From contig CAZRWD010000003.1 of the NCBI GenBank assembly GCA_964603785.1, positions 142,716 to 206,715 of the forward strand: a stretch of 64,000 bases of DNA, read 5' to 3'. This document shows positions 5,665-62,498 of the stretch, piece after piece. The stretch comes from an uncultured bacterium (GTDB taxonomy: Bacteria > Fermentibacterota > Fermentibacteria > Fermentibacterales > Fermentibacteraceae). The notes under the pieces are model-generated. The model had not been told where the DNA came from, did no database searches, and worked only from the letters and a program-made list of their open reading frames with translations. The first letter of the stretch is position 1. Each line of letters starts with the position of its first letter. The position numbers and the translations under genes were made by a program.

Positions 5665-6413
5665 CAGGCGCCACCCCCCGTCCGTTCCTGGATGGTTATG
5701 CCGGTACGGCTCACACCGTTACGGCGCAGCATGTCCAGCGCACGGACCATTCCGTTGTAGTCGCAGTCGGGGAAGAACTTGAGTATGACCACAAGCTCGC
5801 TCTCCCTGACCACGGTCGCTATCTCTCCCTGGACCGCGTCCGCGAGGACCAGCGTGTCGCCGAACGCGACCTGTCCGAAGAGGGGGTCGTTGTCCGACGA
5901 GATCCCGGAACCTATCAGGGACCTCATTATCCCCGGCCTCACCTGTGCGACGAGGTTCTCGCCCTCGACCGCCCTCTCGAGGCTGGCATAGGTCCCGGAT
6001 GGGAGGTCCATGGCGATCAGGAGGTTCTGGAGCAGCCGGCCCTTCGTCGCCGAGAGGGCTTCGACCCTGTCGGAGGCGAGGACCCTGATCCCGGAGACCA
6101 GGGAGTCGCTCTCGAGGCTGACGTCCTCACCTGCACGGGCCCTCTGGAGGGGACCTCCGGGGGGGGCCTGGTCGATGAGGGCGACGTACTCGTCGAGACC
6201 CCACTGCTTGACGGTCATCATGAGACGGTTGGTCTCGTCGATGACCACCTCCTCCGTCTGCTCGTCCGGCTTCTTCGGAAGCCTGTAGGAAATGCCCTTC
6301 TGGACCTCGAACGTCGTGGTCACGAGGAAGAAGATCAGCAGCAGGAATGCGATGTCCGACATCGACGCTTCCGGAATGTCCGCGCCCGTGGTCGGTTTCT
6401 TCAGAATCCGCAT
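5664..6413 (-). CDS. exbD: ExbD/TolR-family protein with extended C-terminal domain
   Basis: ExbD-like N-terminus (SMSDIAFLLLIFFLVTTTF) followed by a periplasmic domain of about 130 aa. Second exbD paralog in the operon. Confidence 0.65.
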   Translation of the reverse strand: MRILKKPTTGADIPEASMSDIAFLLLIFFLVTTTFEVQKGISYRLPKKPDEQTEEVVIDETNRLMMTVKQWGLDEYVALIDQAPPGGPLQRARAGEDVSLESDSLVSGIRVLASDRVEALSATKGRLLQNLLIAMDLPSGTYASLERAVEGENLVAQVRPGIMRSLIGSGISSDNDPLFGQVAFGDTLVLADAVQGEIATVVRESELVVILKFFPDCDYNGMVRALDMLRRNGVSRTGITIQERTGGGA

Positions 6414-6423
6414 GCGATCTCCC

Positions 6424-7245
6424 CTAGAGCTTCTTCAGAAGCTCCATGTCCGAGAGCGTATCGACGAGGAAGCCGCTCGCCTCCTCCATGTCGACCACGA
6501 ACTTGCCGATCAGGGCGATGAACCAGTTGTAGCAGAGCTGAATCGGGATAGCTATCGCCAGACCGGTGGCGGTCGTTATCAGGGCCTCCTGGATACCGCT
6601 GGCGACCAGGCTGGCCTCGACGTTCTTCGCCGCGGCGATGGCGCCGAAGGCGTTGATCATGCCCGAGACCGTCCCGAGGAAGCCCAGCATGGGGGCGACG
6701 CTGACGACGGAGGCCATGATGATGAGCCCCTTCTCGAGGAACGCCATCTCGACCTGTGCCGAGGTCTCTATGCCCTTCTCGACGGCCTCGAGGCCCTTGT
6801 CGCGCCTCAGCAGGCCCGCGCGCAGCACGGAGGAGACGGGGCCCCTCGTGCGGTCGCAGAGGTCCTCTGCCCCCTTGTGGTCGCCCTTGCGGAGATACCC
6901 CGCGAGCTGGTCGAGGAAGGTGGCCTGGCTGATCCTGCACTTGCCGAGGGTGATGAACCTCTCGACGGCCACGGCGACGCCGATGATGGCGCAGATGAGC
7001 AGCGGCCACATGAAGATGCCGCCGGCGATGAACAGGTCCTTGAGGTCCATCGAGGCGTTCTGGGGCCTCTCTATGTCCTCCCCTTCGGGAACGGTCGGGG
7101 TCTCCCCGGCCACCGGTGGAGTCTCCGGCTGTACGGGCTCTTCCACCTGCGCGGTCGTGTCGACCGGGGCGGCGGAGGCAGAATCCGGCGCCTGAGCCCA
7201 GGATACGGCAGCCAGCAAAAGGGCCGCCATGAGGATGTTACGCAT
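6424..7245 (-). CDS. exbB: MotA/TolQ/ExbB proton-channel protein
   Basis: Signal/TM segment and three TM helices with the characteristic ExbB core (MASVVSVAPMLGFLGTVSGMINAFGAIA). Position is immediately upstream of exbD. Confidence 0.75.
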   Translation of the reverse strand: MRNILMAALLLAAVSWAQAPDSASAAPVDTTAQVEEPVQPETPPVAGETPTVPEGEDIERPQNASMDLKDLFIAGGIFMWPLLICAIIGVAVAVERFITLGKCRISQATFLDQLAGYLRKGDHKGAEDLCDRTRGPVSSVLRAGLLRRDKGLEAVEKGIETSAQVEMAFLEKGLIIMASVVSVAPMLGFLGTVSGMINAFGAIAAAKNVEASLVASGIQEALITTATGLAIAIPIQLCYNWFIALIGKFVVDMEEASGFLVDTLSDMELLKKL

Positions 7246-7324
7246 GTAGGACTACTCCTTTGTCGGCTCTTCAGGGGCGGCCCCGCCGATCGCGGAGCCG
7301 CCCCCGGGATCTTTCAGCCTTCTC

Positions 7325-10081
7325 CTACCACTCCAGCCCGATGCCGAATCGGATCATCCTCGGGCGGCCGTAGACGTACGGGTTGCTCAGGGAACCGCCC
7401 GGATCGTGGTCGGGTCTGCCGTCGCCGTCCTGGTCGGCGTCGTACCAGGCGATCTCGGAGATGGTGTTGATGTTGCGACGGTCGAACACGTTCATGACCC
7501 AGCAGTAGACATCGAACGTGACAGGGCCCGCCCAGATCTGGCGGTTGACCTTGATGTCTGTGTCCATCGTCCAGGGGTAGCGCCTGCCGTTGATCTCGGG
7601 AGACGCCGTGCCCTGGCTGTCCTGCGTGTAGGGGAAGCCGGAGCCGTAGCTGAACTGCAGGTTGACGCCGAACCCCTCGAGGAACGGATAGGTGCCGATC
7701 CTGGGACCCTCGCCGCGCGGGATGCGGAAGTCGACGTTGGCGTTGATGGAGTGCCTCTGATCCCAGTCGAGGTAGGACTCGCGCTTCGGGATGATCCAGC
7801 CGGCCCAGAGGTAGCTGTAGTTCTGGGTGGCGCCCGAGGACTTGCCCTTGGCGACCTGGTAGGTGTAGTTCGCGCTGGCCGAGAGGAAGCCGCTAGGGCG
7901 GCGCATTATCGTGAGCTCGGCACCGCGGACGTTGCCGTAGTCGCCGTTGATGTAGCGGTCATAGGCGTCGACGGCGCTGTAGAAGTTCTTCTCGGTGTCG
8001 ATCAGGCCGGTGATGTCCTTGTAGAAGCCGGTGATGTCCATGAGCGTGAAGTCGTCGAACTGGTGCTTCACGCCCACCTCGTAGGAGATGGTCTCCTCGG
8101 GCTCGAGATCGACGTTGCCGATCAGGGGGAAGGAGCCCGACAGGTCGTAGGAGGAGCCGTAGTACATCCTGTCGAACATGGGCATCTGGAAGTAGTGCCC
8201 GTAGGTGAAGTGCAGCACGTCGCGCTCGGTGATCGGGTGCGAGAAGCCCACGCGCGGGCTCAGATGGTACTTCATGGGAACTTCGATGGGGTTCACGATG
8301 TGGTCGGGGTCGCCCGGAGAGGTTCCCGGCGTGACGGGGTTCGAGGGGTCGGCCGGGTACTCGTCGAAGTTCGGGTCGAAGTAGTCGAACCTGAGACCTG
8401 CGTTAACGATCATGCCCCGGTACTCCATCTTGTCCTGGATGTACACGGCGCCCGAGTTGGGGAACGCATGGTAGCGGTTCAGGTAGATGTTGCCACCCGA
8501 GGCCGTGTCGACGCTGTAGTCGAAGACGTCGTAGTAGCGGGCCTCGAGGCCGGCCTTGATCTGGTGCTGCGTGGTGACCTGGCTGGTGATGTCGAACCTG
8601 GCCGTGGAGGTGGTGCTCTTGGTGTCGTTCCAGGCGTAGCGGCTCGCGCCCTGACGGTAGTAGCCGTCGGTGTCGACTATCCTGGTGGGCGTGTAGAGGA
8701 GCCAGTCGGCTATCGAATAGCCGTCACCCACCCAGCCGCCCTCCGGGTCGCGGATCTTGTAGGTGAACCGGGTGAAGTACTGGTTGACCTTGAGCTCCAT
8801 GAAGGTGGCGTCGCTGAGGGTCTGGGTGAGGCCGACGCCGTAGCTGGTGTTGAGCCAGAACCTCGTGGGGAGGCCGTACCTGATGTCCTGCCCCCAGGCG
8901 AGGGTGTCGCCGGTGGTCTCGTCGATGTAGGGGGTCTCGAACCTGTTCCAGTCCCACAGCGAGAAGCCCGCGATGCGGTCGAGGATGTAGCCCGTGAAGT
9001 TGAGCTTGGTGCGGGGGTTGGGCTTGACCGTGAGCTTCACGTTGGCGCTCCACTGGGTGCGCCAGTTGTTGAACTGGTACTCGTAGCGGCCCTCCTCGCC
9101 GCCGCCCGACTCCAGGAACTCGCCGGAGACGAAGAGGCGGACCTCGCCGGGGACCCTTATGCCCATGGCGGGGAGGAGGTAGCTGGTGAGGGGCTCGGGG
9201 CCGCCGACCGAACCCTCGAGGTTGAAGCGGGACTCGGAGAACGGGCCCGCGTCGCCGCGGTTGAACACCCAGGTGCGCCCGTCCTCGAAGCCGAGGGCCT
9301 GCCAGTCGTTGCCGTTGAAGCTGACCTCGCCGGTGTAGTTCGTCCCGCCCTCGCGGGTGACGATGTTGATGACGCCCGACTGGGCGTTGCCATACTCGGC
9401 CCCGAAGCCGCCGCTCATTATCGAGGTCTCGGACACGGCCGACATCGGGATGTCCGAGTTGAAGACGTTGGACGTCGGGTCGACCTGCGCCACGCCGTCG
9501 ACGAGGTAGGCCACCTCGCCCGAGCGGCCGCCGCGCATGTGGAGGCCGCCGCGCTCGGTGGCGCCGGCCTGGCGGTTGATGACGTCCGTGATGCCGGCGA
9601 CGGGCATGGTCCGGATCTCGTCGCGGCCGACGACCGTCATGGAGGCGGTGACGTCGCGGAGGATCATGCCCCTCTGGTCGGTGACCGTGATGACCGTGCT
9701 GCCGACCGTCTGCACGGACAGCTGGAAGTCGTAGCGCGTCGTGAGGTCGGCGCTGACCTGGATGCCGTTGGCGGTCAGGTCGCCCATGCCGACCATCCGG
9801 GCCACGAGGTTGTACTCGCCCGGTTCCAGGTTGATGATGAAGTACTCGCCGTTGGCGTCGGTCATCGCACCGTAGGGGGTACCCACGATCATGACCGTCG
9901 CGCCGACCAGCGGACTGCCGGAGGTGTCGGTGACCCTCCCGGCAATCTTGCCGGTGGTACCCGCGCCAGCAGCTAGCGCAAGGCACAGGACCAGAGCGGC
10001 AGTTATCGCCGAAGCCCTTCCAAGCACTGTTGACGCTCCTTTCCTTGACTGTGGAGTTGTTACCCTTTCCACACTTCTCAT
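7325..10081 (-). CDS. TonB-dependent receptor with N-terminal carboxypeptidase-regulatory-like domain
   Basis: Signal peptide. CarbopepD_reg-like beta-sandwich (GRVTDTSGSPLVGATVMIVGT...DANGEYFI). Plug domain (DEIRTMPVAGITDVIN...GGLHMRGGRSGEVAYLVDGV). Long beta-barrel ending in an aromatic residue (GIGLEW). Immediately upstream of exbB-exbD-exbD-tonB. Confidence 0.8.
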   Translation of the reverse strand: MRSVERVTTPQSRKGASTVLGRASAITAALVLCLALAAGAGTTGKIAGRVTDTSGSPLVGATVMIVGTPYGAMTDANGEYFIINLEPGEYNLVARMVGMGDLTANGIQVSADLTTRYDFQLSVQTVGSTVITVTDQRGMILRDVTASMTVVGRDEIRTMPVAGITDVINRQAGATERGGLHMRGGRSGEVAYLVDGVAQVDPTSNVFNSDIPMSAVSETSIMSGGFGAEYGNAQSGVINIVTREGGTNYTGEVSFNGNDWQALGFEDGRTWVFNRGDAGPFSESRFNLEGSVGGPEPLTSYLLPAMGIRVPGEVRLFVSGEFLESGGGEEGRYEYQFNNWRTQWSANVKLTVKPNPRTKLNFTGYILDRIAGFSLWDWNRFETPYIDETTGDTLAWGQDIRYGLPTRFWLNTSYGVGLTQTLSDATFMELKVNQYFTRFTYKIRDPEGGWVGDGYSIADWLLYTPTRIVDTDGYYRQGASRYAWNDTKSTTSTARFDITSQVTTQHQIKAGLEARYYDVFDYSVDTASGGNIYLNRYHAFPNSGAVYIQDKMEYRGMIVNAGLRFDYFDPNFDEYPADPSNPVTPGTSPGDPDHIVNPIEVPMKYHLSPRVGFSHPITERDVLHFTYGHYFQMPMFDRMYYGSSYDLSGSFPLIGNVDLEPEETISYEVGVKHQFDDFTLMDITGFYKDITGLIDTEKNFYSAVDAYDRYINGDYGNVRGAELTIMRRPSGFLSASANYTYQVAKGKSSGATQNYSYLWAGWIIPKRESYLDWDQRHSINANVDFRIPRGEGPRIGTYPFLEGFGVNLQFSYGSGFPYTQDSQGTASPEINGRRYPWTMDTDIKVNRQIWAGPVTFDVYCWVMNVFDRRNINTISEIAWYDADQDGDGRPDHDPGGSLSNPYVYGRPRMIRFGIGLEW

Positions 10082-10247: not shown

Positions 10248-10904
10248 TCAGCCCAGCAGGCCCCCCAGTCCGGGGATCGTGGGAAGCCATTCGAACAGTA
10301 GGAACTGCGCCTGCCCGATCAGCAGGCTGATCCTCGCCATGACGGTGTATCCGAAGCTCGCTCCGAACGCGACCATCAGTATCGTTATCCCGACCTTCGC
10401 GGCACCGCCCGTGAAGCCGGTGTGCGCCTTCGAGAAGAAGAAGTAGACGAGGCCGCACACGACTCCCGTCACCAGTATCAGGTTGTCGAGGAAGTTGGCG
10501 GCCCCCATGCCCGTGAGGGCGACGATGGTTCCCTCGACCTGTCCCAGGCAGTTCGTCTGCAGGGTGCTCACCAGGCTCAGGCCGGCCCCCGTGCCGACTA
10601 TCATCGCCAGCGCGAGCCTCGACATGCCCGCGATCCTGGGCACGAGCCGCATCAGCATGAAGAGCCCGAAGGCGCCGGGGACCAGCATCCAGTAGTCGGG
10701 AGTGCCGTCGGCGGCGCCCGTCAGCTCGTCCCAGAAGTTCGGTATGAGCACGTTCTCGATGTTGTATATGACCCAGTACCCTGCGCTCATCCCCACGAAG
10801 AGGTGCTCCGCGAACTTGTAGAAGGGGTTGTCCCTGTATAGGAAGCTGTAGAGCATCAGGGTGAGGATCGCTCCGAGCCAGATCCCCGTTATCTCCCAGT
10901 TCAT
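10248..10904 (-). CDS. Uncharacterised 6-TM integral membrane protein
   Basis: Six predicted hydrophobic helices with high GC3 coding. Four-nt overlap with the upstream gene. No family recognised. Confidence 0.5.
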   Translation of the reverse strand: MNWEITGIWLGAILTLMLYSFLYRDNPFYKFAEHLFVGMSAGYWVIYNIENVLIPNFWDELTGAADGTPDYWMLVPGAFGLFMLMRLVPRIAGMSRLALAMIVGTGAGLSLVSTLQTNCLGQVEGTIVALTGMGAANFLDNLILVTGVVCGLVYFFFSKAHTGFTGGAAKVGITILMVAFGASFGYTVMARISLLIGQAQFLLFEWLPTIPGLGGLLG

Positions 10905-11761
10905 CTCGAGACCCCCTTCCTGCGGTTCCTGACTGTCAGGAAGGTGATGTTCCCCAGGACTATGAACCCCATGATCACGAGGTGGGCCACGGACTGCGCG
11001 GCCATCCCCGGCGTGGCGGTCCCGGGAGGAGGGTCGTCGATGCCGGCCCTTATCATGGTCTCGTAGTCGGCGGCGCCCTTGAGCCCGCCGAGGAGACCTA
11101 TCATCTGGCCCGTGCCGAGATATGTGTAGAACTCGGGAGCGCTCACCGCGGTGCAGCCGCCACCGACCGGGAGGCCGAACCGGTCCCCGGCCATCATCAC
11201 CCAGGCATGGATGCCGGGGTCGCCCGCCGACAGCGAGATGACCAGATCGATGTCCTTCAGGCTCTGGACGCGGCCCAGCAGGGGGATGGAGTCATAGGGC
11301 ATGCCGTCCTTGTCCTGCGGATAGACGGCCCGTATGGAGCTTCCCATCCTCACGATGGAGACGCCCGCCCCGACGGTGTAGCCGAGGTTGACCCAGTCCA
11401 CGTACTGCACCGCCCCGAGACTGTCCCCCACGCTCGACAGGGCGTCCTGGGACAGGCTCGCCCCCTGCGGCCAGAGGGCCGTCGCTATGATCCTGTGGCC
11501 CCGGGTGAAGACGTGCTGGGCCAGGGCGACGGCCATGGGCTGGAGCTCGGGCATCGTCGAGGGGTCGTAGTCGTAGCTTATCAGTATCGTGGATCCCCCG
11601 GGCAGGGCGTCGATGTATCCGTAGAGGTCGCTGCTCGGACCCTCGCCGACCGGGATCGGGAAGTTCATCCGGAGAGCGAGCGGAACGAAGACGGAGAGGG
11701 CCATGAGGATGTAGATCACCCTCCGGTCGACCCTGTCCAGCTTTTCCAGGAGTCGTCTCAT
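10901..11761 (-). CDS. Uncharacterised bitopic membrane protein (N- and C-terminal TM helices flanking a soluble domain of about 200 aa)
   Basis: Start trimmed to MRRLLEKLDRV, where an ATG overlaps the stop of the upstream gene (ATGA at 11759-11763). TM at IYILMALSVFVPLAL and again near the C-terminus. Confidence 0.5.
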   Translation of the reverse strand: MRRLLEKLDRVDRRVIYILMALSVFVPLALRMNFPIPVGEGPSSDLYGYIDALPGGSTILISYDYDPSTMPELQPMAVALAQHVFTRGHRIIATALWPQGASLSQDALSSVGDSLGAVQYVDWVNLGYTVGAGVSIVRMGSSIRAVYPQDKDGMPYDSIPLLGRVQSLKDIDLVISLSAGDPGIHAWVMMAGDRFGLPVGGGCTAVSAPEFYTYLGTGQMIGLLGGLKGAADYETMIRAGIDDPPPGTATPGMAAQSVAHLVIMGFIVLGNITFLTVRNRRKGVSR

Positions 11762-12420
11762 CAGTCGGCACCTCCCAGATAGCTGCGCTCGATACCGAAG
11801 ATCATCCTTAGGGAGGTCGCCACCACGCCCAGCGCGGCGCCGATCATGACGGCCCTCTGGCCCGCCATGTTGGGCACCTGCATTATCCACTCGGCCACCT
11901 CGCTGACGAGGTTGGGGTGCGCCCCGGCGGCCGCTCCCGGGAAGAGCCTCCAGATGAGGTCGCCTATGGGCACCCGGCCGAGCATGACGACGAACGCGGA
12001 GAGCAGCAGCAGGGTGGCCCGCCAGTTGGAGGAGCGGAAGGCCCGGAAGGCGGCGGAGGCCACGAAGAATGCCAGCAGGCTGAACATGGTCGCGCCCATG
12101 GGCACGATCATGTTCTGGAACAGGTAGTCGAAAGGCCTGCCCTCGACAACCCCGTACCTCAGCCCGGTGACCATCATCAGGGCGAATCCGGCCAGGACCA
12201 CCGGGCTGTACTTCCAGTTCCTGACCCTGTGCCGTATCCTGGAGAAGTGCACCTGGACGAGATTGACGGCCCCGAGGAAGATCGCCGCCGAGGCCACGAT
12301 CATGTACCAGTCGGTGAGCCCCTCGCCCATGGTGGAGACGGGCCTGTGGGGGATGAAGAAGTGCAGGATCATCAGGATGCCGCAGAAGAACGTCACCAGG
12401 AGCGGAAGAAGCATTCTCAC
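11761..12420 (-). CDS. Uncharacterised 6-TM integral membrane protein
   Basis: Six hydrophobic segments with Arg/Lys-rich loops. Translationally coupled to the downstream gene. Confidence 0.5.
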   Translation of the reverse strand: MRMLLPLLVTFFCGILMILHFFIPHRPVSTMGEGLTDWYMIVASAAIFLGAVNLVQVHFSRIRHRVRNWKYSPVVLAGFALMMVTGLRYGVVEGRPFDYLFQNMIVPMGATMFSLLAFFVASAAFRAFRSSNWRATLLLLSAFVVMLGRVPIGDLIWRLFPGAAAGAHPNLVSEVAEWIMQVPNMAGQRAVMIGAALGVVATSLRMIFGIERSYLGGAD

Positions 12421-12430
12421 GGTCCGCCTC

Positions 12431-13624
12431 CTACTCGACGTGGAGCAGGAACCGCAGGAAGTCGGCCAGTCTCGAGGCCGGCTCCCATGCGGTGCCCACC
12501 GACGCGGCGGCTACGCCTACCACTATGAGGAACATTATCACGAGTTTCGCCGCGTCCTGCCCCTTCAGGCTGCCCAGGAGCTTCGGCTCGCGGGACAGGT
12601 ATGCGCTGGCCGCGAACAGCTCCTCGCCTATGAGCGTGTAGTCGCAGGCCGCGATGAAGAAGGGCAGCTGGCTGACCATCGCGGTGCCGGCTATCTGGAT
12701 CGCGCCCACGCTGCGGCCCGTCTCGGCCAGGATGAGGCTCTCGGCGTAGAAGGTGCCCAGGAGGAAGATCGCAGCGGGCCTCTGCCTCACCATCATCCCG
12801 TCGACTCCGGCGGCGTAGCCGAACTGGTCGTCGGTCAGGTAGTTGATGTTGTCGCGGCGGAAGGCGTCGGGCCGGCCGGCCTGCAGGTAGGCCTCCTTCA
12901 CGACCTCCTGGGCCACGCTCATCACGACGCTCCTGGTGTTGGGCACCAGGAGGCTGGCCCCGTACTCGGCGGTCTTCGAGGCGACCCTCCCCAGGATCAC
13001 CATGCTGGCGATGGTCTGTATGTCGTCCATGTCCATGATGCCGGGGATGTAGAGTACGGGGCGTCCCATCTCGGTGGCCCTGCCGACCGCCTCGTCGACC
13101 GCGGCCAGACCGCCGATCTCCCTGATGAAGAGGCTGCGGCCGCGCTTGCCCCTCTCGATGTACAGGATGATCACGCTGGACAGGAGGACGGTGATGACGA
13201 ACATCCCCACCCTCCTGCTGTGGAACCACTGGGCGCTCGGGACGGCGGACATCATGAGGCTGCGGCCGACGGGGACGCCTCCGCTCCATGCCTCGAGGAC
13301 GTATCCGTACTCGACGCCGTCCTCGAGCCCGTCGTCGCTCCACGACATCGATGCGCCGGAGACCCATCCGACCTCTTCGGCCACGCCTCCGCCGGACAAC
13401 CTGAGGATCCTCACGGAATCGGGCAGGGCACCATCGGTCGAATAGGTCCACGAGAGGTCCAGCATGCCTCCGACGTCGTCCGGGGCGTCTGAGGCCTCGA
13501 ACGAGTCTATCCTGGCCAGCGGCGCCGGCGGGGTGACCGCAGCCCCGGTCGAGTCGACCGGGGCGGCCGCCGCCGTGCCGGACAGGATGGCCAGGAGAGG
13601 CAACATCAGCTCGCATCTCTTCAT
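12431..13624 (-). CDS. Uncharacterised membrane protein with N-terminal FN3-like ectodomain
   Basis: Start trimmed to MKRCELMLPLLAILSGTAAAA (signal peptide). FN3-like segment (LDLSWTYSTDG...YGYVLEAWSG). TM helix (VGMFVITVLLSSVIILYI), a cytoplasmic domain of about 200 aa, and a C-terminal TM helix. Confidence 0.5.
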   Translation of the reverse strand: MKRCELMLPLLAILSGTAAAAPVDSTGAAVTPPAPLARIDSFEASDAPDDVGGMLDLSWTYSTDGALPDSVRILRLSGGGVAEEVGWVSGASMSWSDDGLEDGVEYGYVLEAWSGGVPVGRSLMMSAVPSAQWFHSRRVGMFVITVLLSSVIILYIERGKRGRSLFIREIGGLAAVDEAVGRATEMGRPVLYIPGIMDMDDIQTIASMVILGRVASKTAEYGASLLVPNTRSVVMSVAQEVVKEAYLQAGRPDAFRRDNINYLTDDQFGYAAGVDGMMVRQRPAAIFLLGTFYAESLILAETGRSVGAIQIAGTAMVSQLPFFIAACDYTLIGEELFAASAYLSREPKLLGSLKGQDAAKLVIMFLIVVGVAAASVGTAWEPASRLADFLRFLLHVE

Positions 13625-13716
13625 CCGCCGCCTCCAAGCCCGTGTGTCAGGGCGCGAATGCGAGGAGGGGGCCGCAGCCCCCTCCCATCCCGTGTACAGG
13701 AGCGGGAAGACCTTCG

Positions 13717-14838
13717 TCATTCCTCTATGAGCTCCACGTTGGCGCGGGGCACGACGGCCCGCGAGCCGTCAGCGAACTCGACCTCGAGCACCCTCACCCT
13801 GGCCTCGGTCTCGAGCAGCTGGAGCTCGGCCGGGAGGGCGGAGACCTTCCCGAGCATGCCGAAGTACGGCGCCCTGATGACCCTGACGGGAGACCCGACG
13901 TCGAGCGCTCCGTGCTCGCGGTCCGTCTCCCTGCCCTTCACCTCCGGGCCGACCGGGATCACGACCTCCGGCCGTATCACGCCGGCCCTGATCTGGGTCG
14001 CACCGTTGATGCTCGCGACCATGCCCGCACGGCTGCACAACAGGTCGAATGTGTTGCCGGCCATGTTCATCCTGCCGAAGCCCTCGGTCAGGATGAGGGT
14101 TATGCCCTTGTTCTCGTGCCCGGTGATCGCCACCCCGAGGTCGTAGCCCAGGAAGTCCTTCAGGTCCCTGTCGTCGAACCCTCCCGAGACCACCCCGCGC
14201 ACGCCCGTCGAGACCGCCTTCCTGAGGGTCTCGTGGCTCACGAAGGAGCCTCCCACGAGGACCTTGCCCGCGCAGGCCGGGGTGACGAGATCGGGGGTGA
14301 GCTCCTGCTCGGGGGACTTCACGACCGGCATGATCTCGCCCCGGGTCTCGCCTCCTATCCCGAAGATGCCCTGGACGAAGGTGGCCCGCGTCTCCACGAC
14401 GACGCCCTCCTCCGGGATGACCTCGACTATCCTGCCCTTCACATAGGCCTCGATGGTGACGGGTATCGGGGGCTCGCGGAGGACGGCCTGGCCCGTCACC
14501 TTGTTGAAGCTCTCGAAGGTGCCCACTATGGGCGACCTGACGGTGTTCCTGAAGAGACCGAACAGCCCCTTCGACTGGGCGAAGGGCTCGTTCTCGGCCA
14601 GCGGCTCGCCCTCGGCCTTCAGGAGGAGGGTCGGGATGTCCTCGGGCGGGACGCCCATGATGTTGGCGAGGTTGATCATCTTGACGTTGCCGGGGAGTTC
14701 GGTGCTCGCGACGACCGTTCCGGCGTCGACCTCGTCGCCCGTCCCGACCGTCACCCGGCCCTTGAGCGGCAGGCGCCTCTCCTTGCGGACTATCGTCACA
14801 TCTGCGACCCGGAGCCCCGGGGTGTATGCGAAAGCCAT
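13717..14838 (-). CDS. Uncharacterised 373-aa protein, partner of the ASKHA-fold protein
   Basis: Protein-like composition. N-terminal region resembles a lipoyl/hybrid-barrel motif (GRVTVGTGDEVDAGTVVAS). No TM. The start lies 4 nt after the stop of the upstream ASKHA gene. No family assignment. Confidence 0.5.
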   Translation of the reverse strand: MAFAYTPGLRVADVTIVRKERRLPLKGRVTVGTGDEVDAGTVVASTELPGNVKMINLANIMGVPPEDIPTLLLKAEGEPLAENEPFAQSKGLFGLFRNTVRSPIVGTFESFNKVTGQAVLREPPIPVTIEAYVKGRIVEVIPEEGVVVETRATFVQGIFGIGGETRGEIMPVVKSPEQELTPDLVTPACAGKVLVGGSFVSHETLRKAVSTGVRGVVSGGFDDRDLKDFLGYDLGVAITGHENKGITLILTEGFGRMNMAGNTFDLLCSRAGMVASINGATQIRAGVIRPEVVIPVGPEVKGRETDREHGALDVGSPVRVIRAPYFGMLGKVSALPAELQLLETEARVRVLEVEFADGSRAVVPRANVELIEE

Positions 14839-14841
14839 ATC

Positions 14842-16704
14842 CTACCTCCCCAGGGAGAGGAACTTGTCAGGGTAGGCCGAGAGGGACGACGCCCACTCCT
14901 GGAGCTTCCTGACCCTCTCGGGGTTGTTCTGCGGCAGCACGAAGGGCCTGCCCCTGCCGTCCAGCACGACGCCCACGACACCGCCCTCGAGCTCGCACTC
15001 GTGGATCCTGCCGGGGCCGGACCCGACATCGACGCCCTTGACCGGCCTGATGACCGCCCGGGCCTTCTCGCCGACCCCCAGCTGGAGGACCTGCATCTTC
15101 CCGAACTCGATCGCCGTCTCGCGAGTCTTCCCGTCGGGCATGGTGAGGGACACGGCGGCGGCCGGCTGCCCGTCCCTGCCCTGGCCGACCGGCGCCACGC
15201 AGGAGCCCAGCCTGATGAGGCAGTCCTTGTCGAACACCTCGGTGGCCGCTCTCGGGAGCACCTCCGAGAGCACTCCGAGCTGCGGCATCATGAATATCGA
15301 GTCGACGGCCAGCATGGTGACGCCCTCCGGCAGGAAGGAGTCGATCAGCAGCATGGCGGCCTGGCAGCGCCTGGGAGCGTGCGACAGGACGCCTCCCGAC
15401 CCTATGAGGAGGTCCAGCGCCATCATGTCCACGAGGGTCGCGCCCGTCTGGGTCTGGTCGAAGGCGTCGCCTATCGTCCTCTCCTGGGCGACACCCTTCA
15501 GTCCGACGGCGAGGTCCCTGTGCTGCACCAGCGCCAGCCTGAGGGCCTCCCTGGCGATGGCCTGCTCCACGATCAGCTCCTCGAGGGTCTGCGGGATCGT
15601 CGTCGGCCTGATCATCTTGTTGCGAATGCGGTTGCGGAGGTCCGCCTCCTCCATCCTGAACGGGACCCAGCGCATCACGTTGTCGAGCCCGGCACTCGCC
15701 AGGACGTTGGACACGCTGTAGCTCATGCCCAGGTTGGCAGAGACCGTGCGGTTGAACACCGGCTGCCCCTCGCTGTCGAAGACGCTGAACACGTCGGTGG
15801 TCGCACCTCCGATGTCGACTCCCATGACGTGTATGCCCTCGGCCCGGGCGACCATCTCGATGAGCTTCCCCACGGCTCCCGGGGTGGGCATTATCGGGAC
15901 GTTGACCCATTCGCTGTCGACGTAGCGTCCCGTCCACTGCATCAGCTTGCCGTATCCGGGGGCCTGGGCCATGACATGCTCCATGAACAGCTCATGGATG
16001 GTGTCCCTCGCCGGACCGAGGTTCTCCCTCTCCAGGACGGGCCTGATGTTGGGGACGGTCTTCAGGGCGGCCATCTCTCCGAGCTCGCTCTCGACCTCGG
16101 GCGCGGCATCCCTGTTCCCCGCATAGATGACCGGAAGCTTGTAGCCCACGCCGAACCTGGGCTTGGGGTCCGCGGCCCTTATGACCTCGGCGAGCTCTAC
16201 GACGTGGTCGACCGTGCCCCCGTCGATGCCTCCGGAGAGGAGGATCATGTCGGGACGGAGCCTGCGGATGTCCGCCACCTTCTCGTGGAAGAGCCTGCCG
16301 TCGTTGGAGGCGACGACGTCCATGACTATGGCGCCGGCCCCCAGGGCGGCCCTCTGGGCGCTCTCGCCGGTCATCGACTTCACCACGCCGGCCACCGTCA
16401 TCTGGAGGCCGCCGCCGGCCGAGGAGGTTGACATGTAGATGTCCGCGCCCCTGGTCGGGTCGTCACCGACGAAGATCCCGTCGCTCTTCTCGTTGAGGAA
16501 CTTCCTGCCGAGAAGGTCCTCTATCTCGCCCACGGCGTTCAGGACGCCCTTGGTGACGTCCTCCGCAGGCGCCTCCACGGTGGTGGGAGCCTCTCCCCTG
16601 GTGATGAGGCGGTATTCACCATCCCTCTTCTCGATGAGGATCGCCTTCGTGGTGGTGCTGCCGCAGTCGGTCGCGATGATCCTCGTTATCTCCTTGCCGG
16701 CCAA
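14842..16704 (-). CDS. ASKHA-superfamily (actin/Hsp70/sugar-kinase fold) protein, GlmL/MutL- or EutA-like
   Basis: N-terminal phosphate-1 motif IATDCGSTTTKAILIE, typical of GlmL/MutL (glutamate mutase L), EutA and BadF/BcrA-type ASKHA ATPases. A second Gly-rich motif (MGVDIGGATTDVF) suggests a duplicated ASKHA domain. Size is 620 aa. Confidence 0.6.
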   Translation of the reverse strand: MAGKEITRIIATDCGSTTTKAILIEKRDGEYRLITRGEAPTTVEAPAEDVTKGVLNAVGEIEDLLGRKFLNEKSDGIFVGDDPTRGADIYMSTSSAGGGLQMTVAGVVKSMTGESAQRAALGAGAIVMDVVASNDGRLFHEKVADIRRLRPDMILLSGGIDGGTVDHVVELAEVIRAADPKPRFGVGYKLPVIYAGNRDAAPEVESELGEMAALKTVPNIRPVLERENLGPARDTIHELFMEHVMAQAPGYGKLMQWTGRYVDSEWVNVPIMPTPGAVGKLIEMVARAEGIHVMGVDIGGATTDVFSVFDSEGQPVFNRTVSANLGMSYSVSNVLASAGLDNVMRWVPFRMEEADLRNRIRNKMIRPTTIPQTLEELIVEQAIAREALRLALVQHRDLAVGLKGVAQERTIGDAFDQTQTGATLVDMMALDLLIGSGGVLSHAPRRCQAAMLLIDSFLPEGVTMLAVDSIFMMPQLGVLSEVLPRAATEVFDKDCLIRLGSCVAPVGQGRDGQPAAAVSLTMPDGKTRETAIEFGKMQVLQLGVGEKARAVIRPVKGVDVGSGPGRIHECELEGGVVGVVLDGRGRPFVLPQNNPERVRKLQEWASSLSAYPDKFLSLGR

Positions 16705-16726: not shown

Positions 16727-17116
16727 TCAGCGGCTCCTGCCGCGGAAGATCCTCTTGAGGATGCCGACGCGCCGCGGGCGGGAGAGCCTCTCGAGGCTCC
16801 TGCGCTCCGACTCGCGCGCATTCTCGTCCTCTATCGCCTTCAGGAGCTTCTCGACATTCTCCCTGTCCTCGAGCATCCTGACGAACCTGTAGTACTCGCC
16901 GGACTCCACGACGAGCGAGACCATGGGGTTGAGGAAGACCAGGAACTGGTTGCCGAGGAAGGAGAGGGGCTTGACCGACTCGAGGAAGACGATGGCCGGC
17001 ACGGTCAGCTCGCGCGCCACGATCGCCCTCGCTATCCTCCCGATCAGATCGTCGAAGCACTCGGCCGGCTGGTCAGCCGCTTCGTCCGCCCACAGACCTG
17101 TCCCTGACGAACGCAA
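16727..17116 (-). CDS. Hypothetical small protein
   Basis: Protein-like composition (ELTVPAIVFLESVKPLSFLGNQFLVFLNPMV...), unlike the overlapping Arg-rich frame. The 5' end overlaps the preceding small gene by about 44 nt, so the true start is probably internal. Confidence 0.3.
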   Translation of the reverse strand: MRSSGTGLWADEAADQPAECFDDLIGRIARAIVARELTVPAIVFLESVKPLSFLGNQFLVFLNPMVSLVVESGEYYRFVRMLEDRENVEKLLKAIEDENARESERRSLERLSRPRRVGILKRIFRGRSR

Positions 17117-17513
17117 TTACTTCCTCCCTGTTCTCCGGTGAGAACTGCACGGAGAGCCCCCTGAACCTGGCCAGCCTGGTCGGCCCGGGGAAGGGGCTGA
17201 GGAGCATGCCGCGCGGGTCGGTGTAGAAGCTCCTCACCTCGCTCCACCTCCGCCGCTCGGTCCCGAACACGGACCTCTTGGCCACCCCCTCCTCGTCCAT
17301 GCGGTAGGAGGTGGGCAGGATGAAGCTCCACAGCGAGAGGCACAGGAGCGAGAAGCCCACCAGGCCCCACCATGCGCTCCCTCCGTAGACAGATGCGAGG
17401 ACGGAGGCAGCGAGCATTATAACCGCGAGGGCCAGCGCTGCCAGTGGACGCTCCCGGGCCGGGTGGGACCGCCACTCGAGGGTCCCGGGCACCTGTGTCA
17501 GATCCTCTCCCAT
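17073..17513 (-). CDS. Small membrane protein with two TM helices and a PH-like (bPH/DUF304-type) C-terminal domain
   Basis: Hidden in the 3' part of a long spurious ORF (17073..18734). The ATG at 17511-17513 (MGEDLTQ...) follows the gcvPB stop. Two TM helices (LAALALAVIMLAASVLASVY and WWGLVGFSLLCLSLWSFIL), then a soluble domain of about 75 aa. Confidence 0.4.
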   Translation of the reverse strand: MGEDLTQVPGTLEWRSHPARERPLAALALAVIMLAASVLASVYGGSAWWGLVGFSLLCLSLWSFILPTSYRMDEEGVAKRSVFGTERRRWSEVRSFYTDPRGMLLSPFPGPTRLARFRGLSVQFSPENREEVIAFVRDRSVGGRSG

Positions 17514-18958
17514 CCCTCGGCCAGGTCCAGATCCTTCACCGCCTTCACCTCGTCCAGCCTCAGCACCGGCGTGTTGACCGGGGCGTCGGTGACGAGGTGC
17601 GGCTTCTCGAGGACCTCGGCGGCTATCCCCGTCATGGCGGCGGCGAAGGAGTCGAGCGACTCCAGGCTCTCGGTCTCCGTCGGCTCGATCATCATCGCCT
17701 CGTGGACTATGAGGGGGAAGTAGATCGTCGGGGCATGGAAACCGTAGTCGAGCAGCCTCTTGGCCATGTCCAGCGTCTTCACGCCCCTTGCGAGCTGCCT
17801 GTCCCCCGACAGCACGAACTCGTGCATGCAGGGGCCGTGGTCGAAGGGAAGGTCGAAGTGCTCCCTGAGTATGACCTTCAGGTAGTTCGCGTTGAGGAGC
17901 GCCGTCTCGGAGACCTCCCGCAGCCCCCCGGCCCCGAGTGTCCGGATGTACGCCCAGGCGCGGACGAGCACGCCGAACTGGCCGTGGAAGGCGAGGAGCC
18001 TGCCCAGCGAGGCCGGATCGTGATCGCGGAAGGCAGCCCGCCCGTCCCCGCCCCTGACGACGACCGGGTCGGGCAGGTACCTGCCGAGGAAGTCCCTGCA
18101 GGCCACGGGGCCCGAACCGGGACCGCCCCCGCCGTGGGGGGTCGAGAAGGTCTTGTGGAGGTTCAGGTGGCAGACGTCGAACCCCATGTCCCCGGGGCGG
18201 GCTATGCCGAGGAGGGCGTTCATGTTGGCCCCGTCCATGTAGCAGAGGCCCCCGGCATCGTGCACGATCCTGGTTATCTCCCCGATCCTCGACTCGAATA
18301 TCCCTAGCGTGTTGGGATTGGTTAGCATGAGGGCCGCGGTGCGGGGGCCGGCCTTGGCGGCCAGGTCCTCTAGGTCGACCTCGCCCCTCGAATCCGATTT
18401 CACGCTCACGATCCCGAAGCCCGCGAGGGTGCAGCTGGCCGGATTGGTCCCGTGGGCCGAGTCGGGCATGAGCACCTCGGTCCTGCCCTCGTCGCCCCTC
18501 TCGAGATGCCACCGCCTTATCAGCAGGAGGCCGGTCAGCTCGCCCTGGGCGCCCGCGGCCGGCTGGAGCGTGACCTGGTCGAAGCCCGTGATCTCCGCGA
18601 GGAATCCGCTGAGCTGGAGCATCAGCTCGAGGGCGCCGCGGCAGTGCGCGGCGGGCGTCAGCGGGTGGAGGCCGGAGAAGCCCTCGAGCCTGGCCAGGTC
18701 CTCGTTCAGCTTGGGATTGTACTTCATCGTGCACGAGCCGAGCGGGTAGAGCCCCTTGTCGACATGGTAGTTGCGGGTGCTGAGGTTGACGAAGTGCCTC
18801 ACGGCCTGTGACTCGCTCACCTGCGGCAGCCCGACGGGCCCCTCCCTGAGGGCTCCGGTGCCGAACAGGGCGGCGGGATCGACGGACGGTACGTCCAGGG
18901 GTGGGAGGTCGATGCCCTTCCTGCCGCAGCAGCTCTTCGCGAATATCGTCTCGTGCAT
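17498..18958 (-). CDS. gcvPB: Glycine dehydrogenase (decarboxylating) subunit 2
   Basis: Conserved GcvPB sequence (CTMKYNPK...HLNLHKTFSTPHGGGGPG...). Start trimmed to MHETIFAK, adjacent to the gcvPA stop. Confidence 0.9.
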   Translation of the reverse strand: MHETIFAKSCCGRKGIDLPPLDVPSVDPAALFGTGALREGPVGLPQVSESQAVRHFVNLSTRNYHVDKGLYPLGSCTMKYNPKLNEDLARLEGFSGLHPLTPAAHCRGALELMLQLSGFLAEITGFDQVTLQPAAGAQGELTGLLLIRRWHLERGDEGRTEVLMPDSAHGTNPASCTLAGFGIVSVKSDSRGEVDLEDLAAKAGPRTAALMLTNPNTLGIFESRIGEITRIVHDAGGLCYMDGANMNALLGIARPGDMGFDVCHLNLHKTFSTPHGGGGPGSGPVACRDFLGRYLPDPVVVRGGDGRAAFRDHDPASLGRLLAFHGQFGVLVRAWAYIRTLGAGGLREVSETALLNANYLKVILREHFDLPFDHGPCMHEFVLSGDRQLARGVKTLDMAKRLLDYGFHAPTIYFPLIVHEAMMIEPTETESLESLDSFAAAMTGIAAEVLEKPHLVTDAPVNTPVLRLDEVKAVKDLDLAEGWERI

Positions 18959-18959
18959 C

Positions 18960-20300
18960 TCAGCCCCTCCCTGCCGCGGAGGCCGCCGCATCGACCAGCC
19001 CGTCCATCTCGGCTCGGGTGCGCTTCTCGGTCACGGCGGTGAGGAGGGCTCCGGGACCCAGCGAGGGCACCGGCACCCCGGCGAGATAGCCGGCGGAGGC
19101 GGCGGCATCGAGAACCCGGCCGGCGCCGCAGGAGTAGTCGAGCACGAACTCCCTGAAGAAGGGGGCCTCGAACACCTTCCTGACGCCCGGCAGGGCGGCG
19201 AGCCTGTCGTGCAGGTATCGCGCCTTCGAGAGGCACTGGTGGGCGATGGCGCTGAAGCCCGCCTCTCCGGCGAGCGAGAGGTGTACCGTGGTCGCGAGGG
19301 CCATCAGGGCCTCGTTTGTGCAGATGTTGCTGGTGGCCTTCTCCCTGCGGATGTGCTGCTCCCTGGTCTGGAGGGTGAGCACGTAGCCCGTCTGGCCCGC
19401 CCTGTCCTCGGTCCTCCCTATGATCCTGCCCGGCATGTTGCGCACGAGCTCCTTCCTCGCGGCCATGAAGCCGGCGTAGGGCCCGCCGAACGACATGGGG
19501 ATGCCGAGGCTCTGCCCCTCGCCCACCGCGATGTCGGCTCCCGCGGCTCCGGGGCTCCTGAGGACGGCTGCGGCGACGGGATCGATGCACGCGACGAGGA
19601 GGGCGCCGTGCCCGTGGCACAGAGCGGCTGCCGCGGAGACGTCCTCGACCAGCCCGAAGTAGTTCGGCTGCTGGACGAGGAGCGCGGCGGCCCCGTCGAT
19701 GGCCGGGGAGACCGAGTCGAGGTCTAGCAGGCCGTCAGGGCGGACGGGGACCGGGACCGTCTCGAAGCCGCCCTGGGAGAGGTAGCTCCCGATGACCTCG
19801 AGATACCTGGGATTGAGCGATGCGGGCAGCAGCACCCTGTTCCTGCGGGTCACCCTCATGGCCATGAGGGCGGCCTCTGCCGCTGCGCTCGCCCCGTCGT
19901 ACATGGAGGCGTTCGCGCAGTCCAGCCCGCAGATGCGGGCGATCATCGTCTGATACTCGTATATGCACTGCAGGGTGCCCTGGCTGACCTCCGCCTGGTA
20001 CGGAGTGTACGCGGTGTAGAACTCGCTCCGGAGGAGGATGTGGTCCACCGCGGCCGGCACGAAGTGGTCGTAGGCCCCGGACCCGGCGAAGCAGACGAGC
20101 CTCGCGCCGGTGTTGGCTTCGGCCAGTGCGCGGGCTTCGCGGCCCAGTTCCAGCTCGGAGGCCGCTGCGGGGAGCGAGAGCGGACGGTCCAGCCTGACTT
20201 CGGGCGGGACCGGTTCTGCGAGGTCTGCGACCGAGCGCACCCCGATCCTGTCGAGCATGCGCTCCCTGTCCGCCCCGAGGATGGAGATGAACCTGCTCAT
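18960..20300 (-). CDS. gcvPA: Glycine dehydrogenase (decarboxylating) subunit 1
   Basis: GcvPA hallmarks (FLGAGAYDHFVPAAV...SEFYTAYTPYQAEVSQGTLQ). Confidence 0.9.
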   Translation of the reverse strand: MSRFISILGADRERMLDRIGVRSVADLAEPVPPEVRLDRPLSLPAAASELELGREARALAEANTGARLVCFAGSGAYDHFVPAAVDHILLRSEFYTAYTPYQAEVSQGTLQCIYEYQTMIARICGLDCANASMYDGASAAAEAALMAMRVTRRNRVLLPASLNPRYLEVIGSYLSQGGFETVPVPVRPDGLLDLDSVSPAIDGAAALLVQQPNYFGLVEDVSAAAALCHGHGALLVACIDPVAAAVLRSPGAAGADIAVGEGQSLGIPMSFGGPYAGFMAARKELVRNMPGRIIGRTEDRAGQTGYVLTLQTREQHIRREKATSNICTNEALMALATTVHLSLAGEAGFSAIAHQCLSKARYLHDRLAALPGVRKVFEAPFFREFVLDYSCGAGRVLDAAASAGYLAGVPVPSLGPGALLTAVTEKRTRAEMDGLVDAAASAAGRG

Positions 20301-20307: not shown

Positions 20308-20694
20308 CTACTCCCCTGCCAGCTCTCCGTAGCGGGCCGCGGTCAGCAGATCCTCGAACTGCCCCGCGTCCGAGGGCTGTATCCTGACGAGCCAGCCCTC
20401 CCCGTAGCAGTCGCGGTTCACGAGGCCCGGGTCGGACTCCAGGGCGGGGTTGACCTCGACGATCCTGCCGTCGACGGGCGCATAGAAGTCCTCCGCCGTC
20501 TTGACGGCCTCGAGGACCCCCAGGCTGTCCTTCCTGCGGACCTCCCTGCCCGCCGCGGGGAGCTCCACCATCACTATCTCGCCCATCTGCTCCTGCGCAT
20601 GATCGGTGACGCCCATGGCCAGGCGGCCGTCGGCCTCCCTCCTGATCCACTCGTGGCTCTCGGTGTACCTGAGGTCAGCGGGAATGGCGCTCAT
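20308..20694 (-). CDS. gcvH: Glycine cleavage system H protein
   Basis: Lipoyl-lysine motif LEAVKTAED and the typical 128-aa H-protein fold signature (YTESHEWI). Confidence 0.9.
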   Translation of the reverse strand: MSAIPADLRYTESHEWIRREADGRLAMGVTDHAQEQMGEIVMVELPAAGREVRRKDSLGVLEAVKTAEDFYAPVDGRIVEVNPALESDPGLVNRDCYGEGWLVRIQPSDAGQFEDLLTAARYGELAGE

Positions 20695-20727: not shown

Positions 20728-21828
20728 CTACTGCCTGCGGCTGCCGGTCGTGTAGAACGGCAGCTTGACTATCGTGACGGGCACCCTCCTGCCCCTGATG
20801 TCGGCCTCGAGGGTCGTGCCCGATCTGGAGAGCTCCTTCTCCACATATGCGAGACCCACCGACGAGTTGAGAGCCGGGGCCAGCGTTCCGCTGGTGACCG
20901 TCCCGACCATCTTCTCGCCCTGGAATATCTCGGTGCCGTGGCGGATGATGCCCCTCCCCCCCACGGACAGCCCGACGAGGGTCCGGGAGACGCCCTCCTC
21001 CTTCTGCCTCTGGAGGACCTCCCTGCCTATGAACTCCTTCCCGGAGGCGAGCTTGACCACCCATCCCAGCCTGGCTTCGATGGGTGACGTCGAATGATCT
21101 ATATCATTGCCGTACAATACATACCCAACCTCGAGCCTGAGGGTGTCCCGGGCTCCGAGGCCTATCGGCCGGATGCCCGAACCGGCACCGGCCTCCATGA
21201 CGGCGTCCCAGACCGCTGCGGCATCCCCGCCGGCCACGTAGAACTCGAATCCGTCCTCACCCGTGTACCCGGTGCGCGCGATGAGAGCCTCCCTGCCGGC
21301 AACCCTGCCGGTCTCGTGGGCGTAGTAGGGGATCTCCTCCAGGTCGGTCTTCGTGAGGAGCGAGGCGATCTTCTGGGCATCGGGCCCCTGCACGGCCACG
21401 AGTGCGGTGTCGTCGCTCTCGTTGGTTATCTCCACGCCGCAGGACCGAGAGTGGCTGGTGACCCAGGCCCAGTCCTTCTCGATGTTGGACGCGTTGACGA
21501 CCATCAGGTACTCGTCGTCGGCCAGCCTGTACACGATCAGATCGTCGACGATGCCGCCGTCGGGGTAGCACATGGCGCTGTAGAAGGCCTTGCCGGGGGC
21601 GACGTCGGCGTTGTTGGTCAGCAGGCTCTCCAGGAACTCGAGCGATCCGGGCCCCTTGACCCTGAACTCGCCCATGTGGGAGAGATCGAACACCCCCGAT
21701 CCCCGCCTGACCGCCAGGTGCTCCTCGATGACGCTGCCGTAGTGGATCGGCATCAGGTAGCCGGCGAACGGCTCGATGTGGGCTCCGAGAGACACGTGCC
21801 TGTCATGGAGAGGCGTTCTCTTGTCCAT
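20728..21828 (-). CDS. gcvT: Aminomethyltransferase (glycine cleavage T protein)
   Basis: GcvT motifs (TPLHDRHVSLGA...FAGYLMPIHYGS...FDLSHMGEF). First gene of the gcvT-H-PA-PB operon. Confidence 0.9.
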   Translation of the reverse strand: MDKRTPLHDRHVSLGAHIEPFAGYLMPIHYGSVIEEHLAVRRGSGVFDLSHMGEFRVKGPGSLEFLESLLTNNADVAPGKAFYSAMCYPDGGIVDDLIVYRLADDEYLMVVNASNIEKDWAWVTSHSRSCGVEITNESDDTALVAVQGPDAQKIASLLTKTDLEEIPYYAHETGRVAGREALIARTGYTGEDGFEFYVAGGDAAAVWDAVMEAGAGSGIRPIGLGARDTLRLEVGYVLYGNDIDHSTSPIEARLGWVVKLASGKEFIGREVLQRQKEEGVSRTLVGLSVGGRGIIRHGTEIFQGEKMVGTVTSGTLAPALNSSVGLAYVEKELSRSGTTLEADIRGRRVPVTIVKLPFYTTGSRRQ

Positions 21829-62497: not shown

Positions 62498-62498
62498 G

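Follow-up and report, generated by a model that had tools for sequence, protein, structure and literature searches.

What kind of system is specified by the six genes that fill positions 10248-16704 of the minus strand in a 64,000-nucleotide (nt), 65-70% GC window (the whole stretch of DNA analysed here) from an uncultured bacterium of the Fermentibacteraceae? These genes, here termed A to F, code for an ATPase of the ASKHA fold (A), its soluble partner (B) and four membrane proteins (C, D, E and F). A first-pass annotation, made from the nucleotide sequence without database searches, had taken them for an undescribed membrane complex, potentially an energised envelope machine. The safest statement emerging from our analysis is that they constitute a real, ancient and strongly constrained two-module system with undescribed components. 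Going beyond this, we tentatively favor the interpretation that the locus codes for an undescribed two-module cell-envelope machine, wherein an ATP-driven A-B unit serves membrane modules made up of C, D, E and F (hereinafter CDEF). The case for it is built on two gene fusions, the adjacency of the modules in two distinct gene-neighborhood architectures, a one-to-many layout of the modules, the obligatory presence of small membrane partners and an envelope-related gene context.

The co-directional arrangement of the six open reading frames (ORFs) is upheld by gene calls and homologues, with small corrections to their coordinates. They show a GC content at third codon positions (GC3) of 0.89-0.93, as in the coding frames of this genome, and a public gene catalogue holds the exact products of A (620 amino acids, aa), B (373 aa), C (397 aa), E (286 aa) and F (218 aa). 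The gene for A (14842-16704) is separated by a 3-nt gap from that for B (13717-14838). The gene for C (12431-13624) most likely starts at 13624, yielding a protein that begins with MKRCELM and a signal peptide, and the longer version starting at 13720 is probably wrong, the catalogue form beginning at the same MKRCELM; this start leaves a gap of 92 nt between B and C. A 10-nt gap separates C from D (11761-12414), which probably is a 217-aa protein starting at 12414; a 219-aa form of it is absent from the catalogue. The D/E junction, first described as an ATGA at 11759-11763, is more precisely a TGATG with a 1-nt overlap at 11761, and the 4-nt ATGA overlap at 10901-10904 between E (10901-11761) and F (10248-10904) had been read correctly. 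The unit is, moreover, not restricted to six genes: two small genes, u1 and u2, also belong to it, and through them it is contiguous with the genes for the glycine cleavage system upstream. Together they form a 12-gene same-strand array, gcvT-gcvH-gcvPA-gcvPB-u2-u1-A-B-C-D-E-F, with no gap larger than 92 nt, which is unbroken from the gcv genes to F because u2 begins 16 nt before gcvPB ends; u2 and u1 overlap as well. Long plus-strand ORFs running across A to F (e.g., 13642-16431 over A to C, up to 929 aa) were rejected as artefacts of high GC content: they display high GC at first codon positions and lower GC3, and lack gene-like homologues. Such antisense ORFs also gave rise to spurious "conserved" ORF clusters in our locus comparisons.

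To place the cluster in an evolutionary context, we assembled 80 loci from a scan with a profile of B, using one genome per species, and 80 more from a metagenome scan with a profile of C, and mapped both sets with hidden Markov models (HMMs) built from this cluster. The neighborhood is conserved across many phyla, with the B-profile loci coming from Fermentibacteria, Zixibacteria, Eisenbacteria, WOR-3, Latescibacterota, Calditrichota, Ignavibacteriaceae, Cloacimonadota, Poribacteria, Lentisphaeria, Planctomycetota and others, and A and B each having thousands of members. The genes for A and B are adjacent in 46 of the 65 loci with enough upstream sequence, and in two cases (P0151 and P0202) they are fused to code for a single protein of about 1000 aa. 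This adjacency and these fusions point to A and B functioning together, as the initial pairing of A with the 373-aa protein had proposed; in the locus with the P0151 fusion (L010), C, D and E lie directly downstream. The second module is equally coherent: the order C-D-E-F is invariant across the 160 loci. In P0292, found on three contigs, the periplasmic domain of E is fused ahead of the FN3 domain of C (56% identity, E=4e-84), which agrees with the predicted topology of the two proteins and suggests a joint action of E and C. In L171 (4214-6100) and L172 (1771-3657), C is a 628-aa variant that has gained an N-terminal copy of the E periplasmic domain with the separate E gene being retained, a domain duplication and fusion within the module.

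The two modules are linked to each other in two configurations. In the first (Type I; 48 loci, including the present window), the genes are arranged co-directionally as u2-u1-A-B-(CDEF)n. In the second (Type II; 14 loci), the order is A-g-B, with g coding for another small membrane protein, and (CDEF)n is divergent, head to head with A. That the adjacency of A-B and CDEF survives this rearrangement is good evidence for functional coupling. C is present in 27 of the 39 A-B loci with at least 2 kb of downstream sequence. Further, CDEF is repeated two to three times in tandem beside a single A-B in 21 loci (e.g., L022, L047, L049, L097, L153, L169, L174), and among the paralogues within a locus the FN3 part of C is the most divergent (13-44% identity), whereas its DUF6754 region is the least (55-87%). 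A single A-B beside two or three tandem CDEF sets, paralogues that vary in FN3 and the existence of stand-alone CDEF modules together fit the pattern expected of a shared energiser. Hence, of the initial pairing of an actin-fold ATPase with polytopic membrane subunits, the association stands on its recurrence in two architectures, and the picture of one six-gene cluster gives way to that of two separable modules.

A is the best-defined component of the first module. Its residues 9-495 match the Pfam MutL/GlmL family (PF13941) over the whole profile (positions 1-450 of 450) with E=5e-122 and 408 bits against a gathering threshold of 27, in keeping with the ASKHA/GlmL-like fold first assigned to it. 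The nucleotide-binding motifs are intact (TDCGSTTTK, VDIGGATTD and GSGGVLSHAP), and their phosphate-1, phosphate-2 and adenosine cores (DCGSTTTK, DIGGATTD and GSGG..SHAP, respectively) are invariant in 24 sequences of A. Yet A falls below the NCBIfam cut-offs (NF040745, TIGR01319) for GlmL (221 vs 475 bits), Or-4 (209 vs 600 bits) and the GlmL family (159 vs 204 bits). Its C-terminus bears an additional conserved, subfamily-specific, beta-rich domain of about 125 aa. Between phyla its orthologues share 59-88% identity, and sequence and profile searches of the PDB recovered no solved structure related to A. Thus, by its sequence A is a distinct and extremely conserved subfamily of PF13941. In public records its orthologues go by "glutamate mutase L" or "methylaspartate mutase", labels that are almost certainly wrong in this context: no glutamate mutase (glmS, glmE) or B12-dependent aminomutase was seen among the sampled genes of the window or in about 170 related loci, and the only B12-binding domain near the cluster belongs to a radical-SAM protein 10 kb away.

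B matches no Pfam, NCBIfam, PHROG or PADLOC family, although its identity across phyla is 55-70%. Its structural model predicts that it begins with a barrel-sandwich hybrid of the kind known from biotinyl/lipoyl domains and from the N-termini of NqrA and RnfC. This is followed by a beta region and, at residues ~180-300, by a swivelling beta/beta/alpha domain, with a KOW/SH3-like domain (~310-373) at the C-terminus. In a PDB profile search only KOW fragments were matched, the whole of B being unlike any solved protein. Among 42 homologues there are 25 invariant residues, none of which is Lys, His or Cys, and this argues against lipoylation, biotinylation and phosphohistidine chemistry. More specifically, there is no invariant modifiable Lys at the tip of the barrel-sandwich hybrid hairpin, K90, the position most often occupied by Lys, being R, H, S, T or I in other homologues; and B likewise has no invariant residue that could stand for the catalytic His of the GG.TSH motif in the phosphohistidine swivelling domains of PEP-utilising enzymes.

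The four membrane proteins are, with one exception, without family assignments. C matches DUF6754 (PF20539; E=1e-121, 405 bits vs a gathering threshold of 27), a named Pfam family without an assigned function. It is predicted to consist of a signal peptide, a periplasmic FN3 domain, a transmembrane (TM) segment, the DUF6754 region and a C-terminal TM segment; the DUF6754 region combines an alpha/beta part with hydrophobic segments rich in invariant Glu and Asp, and very conserved motifs follow the first TM segment (GRATEMG, AESLILAETG, IQIAGTA and CDYTLIGEELFAASAYL). PDB profile searches with C matched FN3 domains only. D is polytopic with six TM segments, its most conserved stretch being the helix ATMFSLLAFF.ASAAFRAFR; a weak match to DUF7549 was not reproduced across its homologues. 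E, initially described as bitopic, is predicted to be anchored at both ends: TM segments next to its basic N- and C-termini flank a periplasmic domain of the alpha/beta type, about 230 aa long. F is polytopic with six or seven hydrophobic segments, and displays the invariant motifs YKDNPFYKFAEH and FFFSKEHKG. Sequence and profile searches with D, E and F found no significant relatives in Pfam, NCBIfam or the PDB. In substance, therefore, the initial family-level picture holds: A belongs with MutL/GlmL, C with an uncharacterised DUF, and B, D, E and F with no Pfam, NCBIfam, PHROG or PADLOC family. There are no GldF/GldG or ABC-2 Pfam matches (ABC2_membrane, ABC_transp_aux) in C to F, nor in 29 homologues of D at E<=1, and the cluster has no ABC ATPase. 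A pseudo-symmetric transporter, with D/F and C/E as paralogous pairs, was rejected on account of hhalign probabilities of 0.4% and 2.4%, respectively. Comparisons with phage and defence families were negative for all proteins tested (eight in PADLOC, six in PHROGs).

The A-B pair is always accompanied by small membrane proteins, either u1/u2 or g, which are mutually exclusive. u1 (16727-17116, minus strand; 129 aa) is made up of two weakly hydrophobic helices, ends in a charged tail and matches no Pfam family; it lies directly upstream of A nearly always, occurring with A in 48 loci and never alongside g. u2 (17073-17513, minus strand; 146 aa) combines a two-TM hairpin with a basic C-terminal domain showing a weak likeness to bacterial PH domains (a weak bPH_6 match). 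Its homologues are found upstream of u1-A in 30 of the 80 B-centered loci, and it is called as a 146-aa gene in L001. g, which is encoded between A and B, is about 260 aa long, with a periplasmic domain held between two TM segments.

Taken together, these observations allow us to propose how the system might work, with all mechanistic steps being our inference. The first module would be a cytoplasmic, membrane-tethered ATPase unit comprising A and its obligate partner B along with u1/u2 or g. The second would be an inner-membrane assembly, with D and F as polytopic subunits, C contributing a periplasmic FN3 domain and a cytoplasmic or membrane-embedded DUF6754 region, and E the periplasmic alpha/beta domain. 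ATP binding and hydrolysis by A might drive a movement of the swivelling domain of B, which could be relayed to the cytoplasmic face of CDEF, most plausibly to the DUF6754 region of C. A substrate might thereby be moved across or into the inner membrane via D and F, to be taken over or supplied in the periplasm by E and C, and CDEF may work in step with outer-membrane systems driven by the proton-motive force, namely TonB with its receptor or Tol-Pal. One A-B unit could in this manner serve several paralogous CDEF modules. As for the undescribed energised machine envisaged at the outset, the absence of characterised families and the conserved neighborhood speak for it; that there is a single physical complex, that it transports, the direction and nature of its substrate and the coupling of energy are parts of the proposal that should be read as conjecture.

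Several observations weigh against the idea of an A-B motor for CDEF. To begin with, the modules are often found apart: in 9 of 13 well-flanked loci no A-B is present within 4-10 kb of CDEF, and the genes upstream of such stand-alone CDEF modules are unrelated ones (PurF, TldD, aminotransferases, a Wza-like protein, a GT2 glycosyltransferase and PGI). Conversely, Hydrothermota, Poribacteria and some WOR-3 have A and B in the absence of CDEF and even separated from one another, so that some function of A-B must be independent of a CDEF module nearby. In Hydrothermota A stands alone. Lone B genes in Poribacteria (L026, L039, L043, L044, L055, L058, L063, L067) are preceded by two tandem ABC-2 permease genes with a DUF3526 region. 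Those in WOR-3 and Hydrothermota (L004-L008, L019; ~7150-9995) come directly after a gene for a 940-aa TMEM260_N/TPR protein, which is polytopic and GT-C-like, and are followed by a class I/II or DegT-type aminotransferase in L004-L007 and by a transketolase and FtsEX in L019. Next, the contact of A-B with CDEF is one that we infer from sequence. The AlphaFold2 model of C has a pLDDT of 61, with the FN3 domain alone being reliable and DUF6754 not confidently modelled; D and F match no transporter family; and we know of no GlmL-family protein that energises a transporter. The main unexplained fact is, however, the tight link of the cluster, over multiple phyla, to gcvTHP and lplA, which our favored reading does not account for.

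That link underlies the alternative that the cluster serves glycine cleavage or lipoylation, be it through the import of glycine, lipoate/octanoate or folate, or through handling of the H-protein or its cofactor, with A-B as an ATP-dependent enzyme or chaperone of the pathway. In the present window the genes for GcvT (20728-21828), GcvH (20308-20694), GcvPA (18960-20300) and GcvPB (17498-18991), all on the minus strand and named after Pfam matches of their orthologues in L009, are joined to u2-u1-A-F in the unbroken overlapping array described above. The same gcvT-H-PA-PB order precedes the cluster in 24 of the 80 B-centered loci from several phyla (Fermentibacteria, Eisenbacteria, WOR-3 and others), as well as in L174. 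About 12 loci further have a gene for a LplA/LipB-type ligase after the last F or before u2, which places the cluster between gcvP and lplA; what had looked like an lplA gene behind every F of the metagenome loci was discarded, as the HMM used was contaminated by alternative-frame ORFs and a clean query left only these cases. The lipoyl/biotinyl-like fold of the N-terminal part of B is suggestive in the same direction, but its lack of an invariant lipoate-carrying Lys is not. Moreover, many loci have neither gcv nor lplA, including those from Zixibacteria, all of Type II and those with CDEF only. The 64-kb window itself lacks lplA, and an Rfam scan of it found no glycine or cobalamin riboswitch, including upstream of gcvT, its sole match being a tRNA (61671-61752, minus strand). 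Two to three paralogous CDEF sets are hard to square with one small cofactor. Finally, a PEP carboxykinase gene lies upstream of gcvT (22438-24966, minus strand; an 853-aa stop-to-stop ORF whose real start is probably far downstream, as the domain spans only residues 322-801), and PEP carboxykinase and HAD hydrolase genes recur close to B in L009 and in WOR-3 loci (L004). Their recurrence suggests that WOR-3 and the present lineage share an old block of synteny, and part of the gcv linkage may accordingly have been inherited. On balance, we consider a dedicated role in glycine or lipoate metabolism unlikely, though it is among the stronger competitors.

An equally unlikely alternative is that A-B and CDEF are merely independent neighbors, the former a soluble, ATP-dependent housekeeping enzyme or chaperone and the latter a self-sufficient transporter or enzyme, for instance an ion-coupled one. 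The frequent occurrence of each module alone, the unrelated housekeeping genes beside stand-alone CDEF, and the greater conservation and wider spread of A and B relative to CDEF are all as expected under such independence. Against it stand the adjacency of the modules in two architectures, including the divergent head-to-head one, and the A-B fusion in L010, which still has C, D and E directly downstream. Likewise, the constant small membrane partners of A-B would be odd for a purely soluble enzyme.

The genes on the other side of the cluster raise another alternative. After a 166-nt gap that contains a weak promoter-like site, F is followed on the same strand by genes for a TonB-dependent receptor (7325-10081; Plug and beta-barrel domains), an ExbB/TolQ-family protein (6424-7245), two ExbD proteins (5664-6413 and 5206-5664) and TonB (4519-5190), all recognised by Pfam. 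It is these neighbors at 4519-10081, and not A to F, that constitute a TonB-dependent uptake locus. The first-pass annotation had remarked on this receptor and exbB-exbD-exbD-tonB; they are confirmed here but are lineage-specific, with Tol-Pal taking their place in other lineages. A TonB-dependent receptor and/or ExbB follows the cluster in many loci, and ExbB/TolQ-family genes come after B or F. In Type II loci a full tolQ-(tolR)-tolA-tolB-pal-cpoB operon may lie directly after B (L061, recognised by Pfam; L069, L097, L122 and L169, by phmmer), and in WOR-3 the envelope-biogenesis genes uppS-cdsA-dxr-rseP are found upstream. In view of these associations, the system might be no transporter but an accessory, structural or regulatory, to Tol-Pal or TonB, with A serving at the inner membrane as an actin-like scaffold or switch, for example in outer-membrane tethering, constriction or envelope biogenesis. 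The 14 loci with A-g-B, of which at least five are directly followed by the full Tol-Pal operon, the presence of FtsEX near B in the WOR-3 locus L019, and the between-phylum identity of A of about 65%, which is of the order seen in polymer-forming actin homologues, are congenial to this idea. In the present window, however, the Tol-Pal genes (TolB-, Pal- and CpoB-like ORFs at 61817-63999, minus strand) are about 45 kb away, and the ExbB beside the receptor is related to TolQ only as a distant paralogue (E=2e-17). To our knowledge, GlmL/hydantoinase-type ASKHA proteins do not polymerise, and the tandem CDEF paralogues suit a substrate-specific module better than a scaffold. We thus rate a non-transporting Tol-Pal or TonB accessory as distinctly improbable. 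Weaker still is the notion that A, like an ordinary GlmL, reactivates or chaperones a B12-dependent mutase in a cluster that handles corrinoids via the TonB-dependent receptor: the strong PF13941 match, the database names and the fact that such receptors are the classical route of B12 uptake notwithstanding, scores far below the GlmL, Or-4 and GlmL-family cut-offs, the lack of mutase genes in the loci surveyed and of a cobalamin riboswitch in the window, and the presence of an extra C-terminal domain and a dedicated partner, B, both without counterpart in canonical GlmL, make it very unlikely.

The remaining genes of the window complete the picture. Beyond TonB, the same strand carries an 806-aa ORF without a Pfam family (2189-4609), whose true start is probably further downstream, as it overlaps the TonB ORF by 91 nt; L171 and L172 have this gene (778+ aa) after TonB as well. 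It is succeeded by a gene for a PorV-like outer-membrane protein (1194-2174; Pfam) and, at the end of the array, by one for a GWxTD-domain protein (14-1267). Elsewhere in the window are the genes for the B12-binding radical-SAM protein (26988-28835, plus strand), FeoB (29071-31809, plus strand) and a subunit of pyruvate:ferredoxin oxidoreductase (33389-34849, minus strand), which together point to an anaerobic lifestyle.

How does the proposed A-B-CDEF system compare with those already described? The closest counterparts of A are GlmL/MutL, an accessory protein of glutamate mutase, the related Or-4, and the EutA/DdrA-type reactivases of B12 enzymes, with which it shares the ASKHA fold family, as indicated by the full-length Pfam match and intact motifs. 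DdrA-type reactivases combine the ASKHA ATPase with a swivelling beta/beta/alpha domain; here such a domain is predicted to be supplied by B, in trans or by fusion. A differs from the GlmL type in its sub-cut-off scores, the lack of a mutase nearby, the extra C-terminal domain, the constant membrane partners and a far higher degree of conservation, and its dedicated partner differs in carrying the barrel-sandwich hybrid and KOW domains. In its layout the system recalls the ECF transporters, in which EcfAA'T serves many S components, and ABC importers that share an ATPase: one ATPase unit is found with one to three paralogous membrane modules, with more encoded elsewhere, and the CDEF paralogues vary in their periplasmic parts and are conserved in their cytoplasmic ones. 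Unlike in those transporters, the ATPase has an actin fold rather than a P-loop/ABC one, no subunit has an ABC, ECF or ABC-2 Pfam match, and the coupling is conjectural. The subunit inventory of B to F also bears a loose likeness to that of Na+-NQR (NqrA-E) and Rnf, with one membrane protein of some 400 aa, another that joins a TM segment to a periplasmic domain, and two six-TM proteins of about 200-220 aa. The similarity, however, is confined to the barrel-sandwich hybrid of B, which resembles that of NqrA/RnfC: D, E and F have no Nqr or Rnf matches in Pfam or among PDB profiles, even though such structures are in the PDB; D and F show no detectable relationship to each other; there are no Fe-S or flavin motifs and no invariant Cys/His pattern; and the gene order is different. 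Lastly, Tol-Pal and TonB-ExbBD are envelope-spanning energy transducers and recurrent same-strand neighbors in many phyla. Nevertheless, they use the proton-motive force via stators of the MotA/ExbB family, and u2, u1 and A to F lie outside those families, the link being one of neighborhood. A search of the accessible literature found no papers on DUF6754, PF13941 or TIGR01319, and nothing relevant on GlmL, ASKHA, Tol-Pal and glycine cleavage in combination. Given this, we provisionally place the system outside any known kind; a distant relationship of C to F could still emerge from better structural models.

At 55-88% identity between phyla, A and B rank among the most conserved proteins of unknown function. 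At the least, an annotation in wide use can now be corrected, and u1, u2, g, B, D, E and F can be recognised as gene families along with two conserved operon architectures. The embedding of the cluster between the glycine cleavage genes and a lipoate ligase additionally offers a testable lead for a metabolic role. A broader proposal, which we regard as rather doubtful for now, is that these genes represent a new class of envelope machines in FCB- and PVC-related phyla, wherein a GlmL-type ATPase and its swivel partner act as a shared motor for CDEF modules alongside TonB/Tol-type systems. Such a class, if true, would be a case of ATP-powered transport or assembly unrelated to the ABC, ECF, P-type and secretion ATPases. 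If A-B does energise CDEF, it would represent a new way of coupling ATP to a membrane process, and would fill a gap in the envelope biology of many uncultured bacteria.

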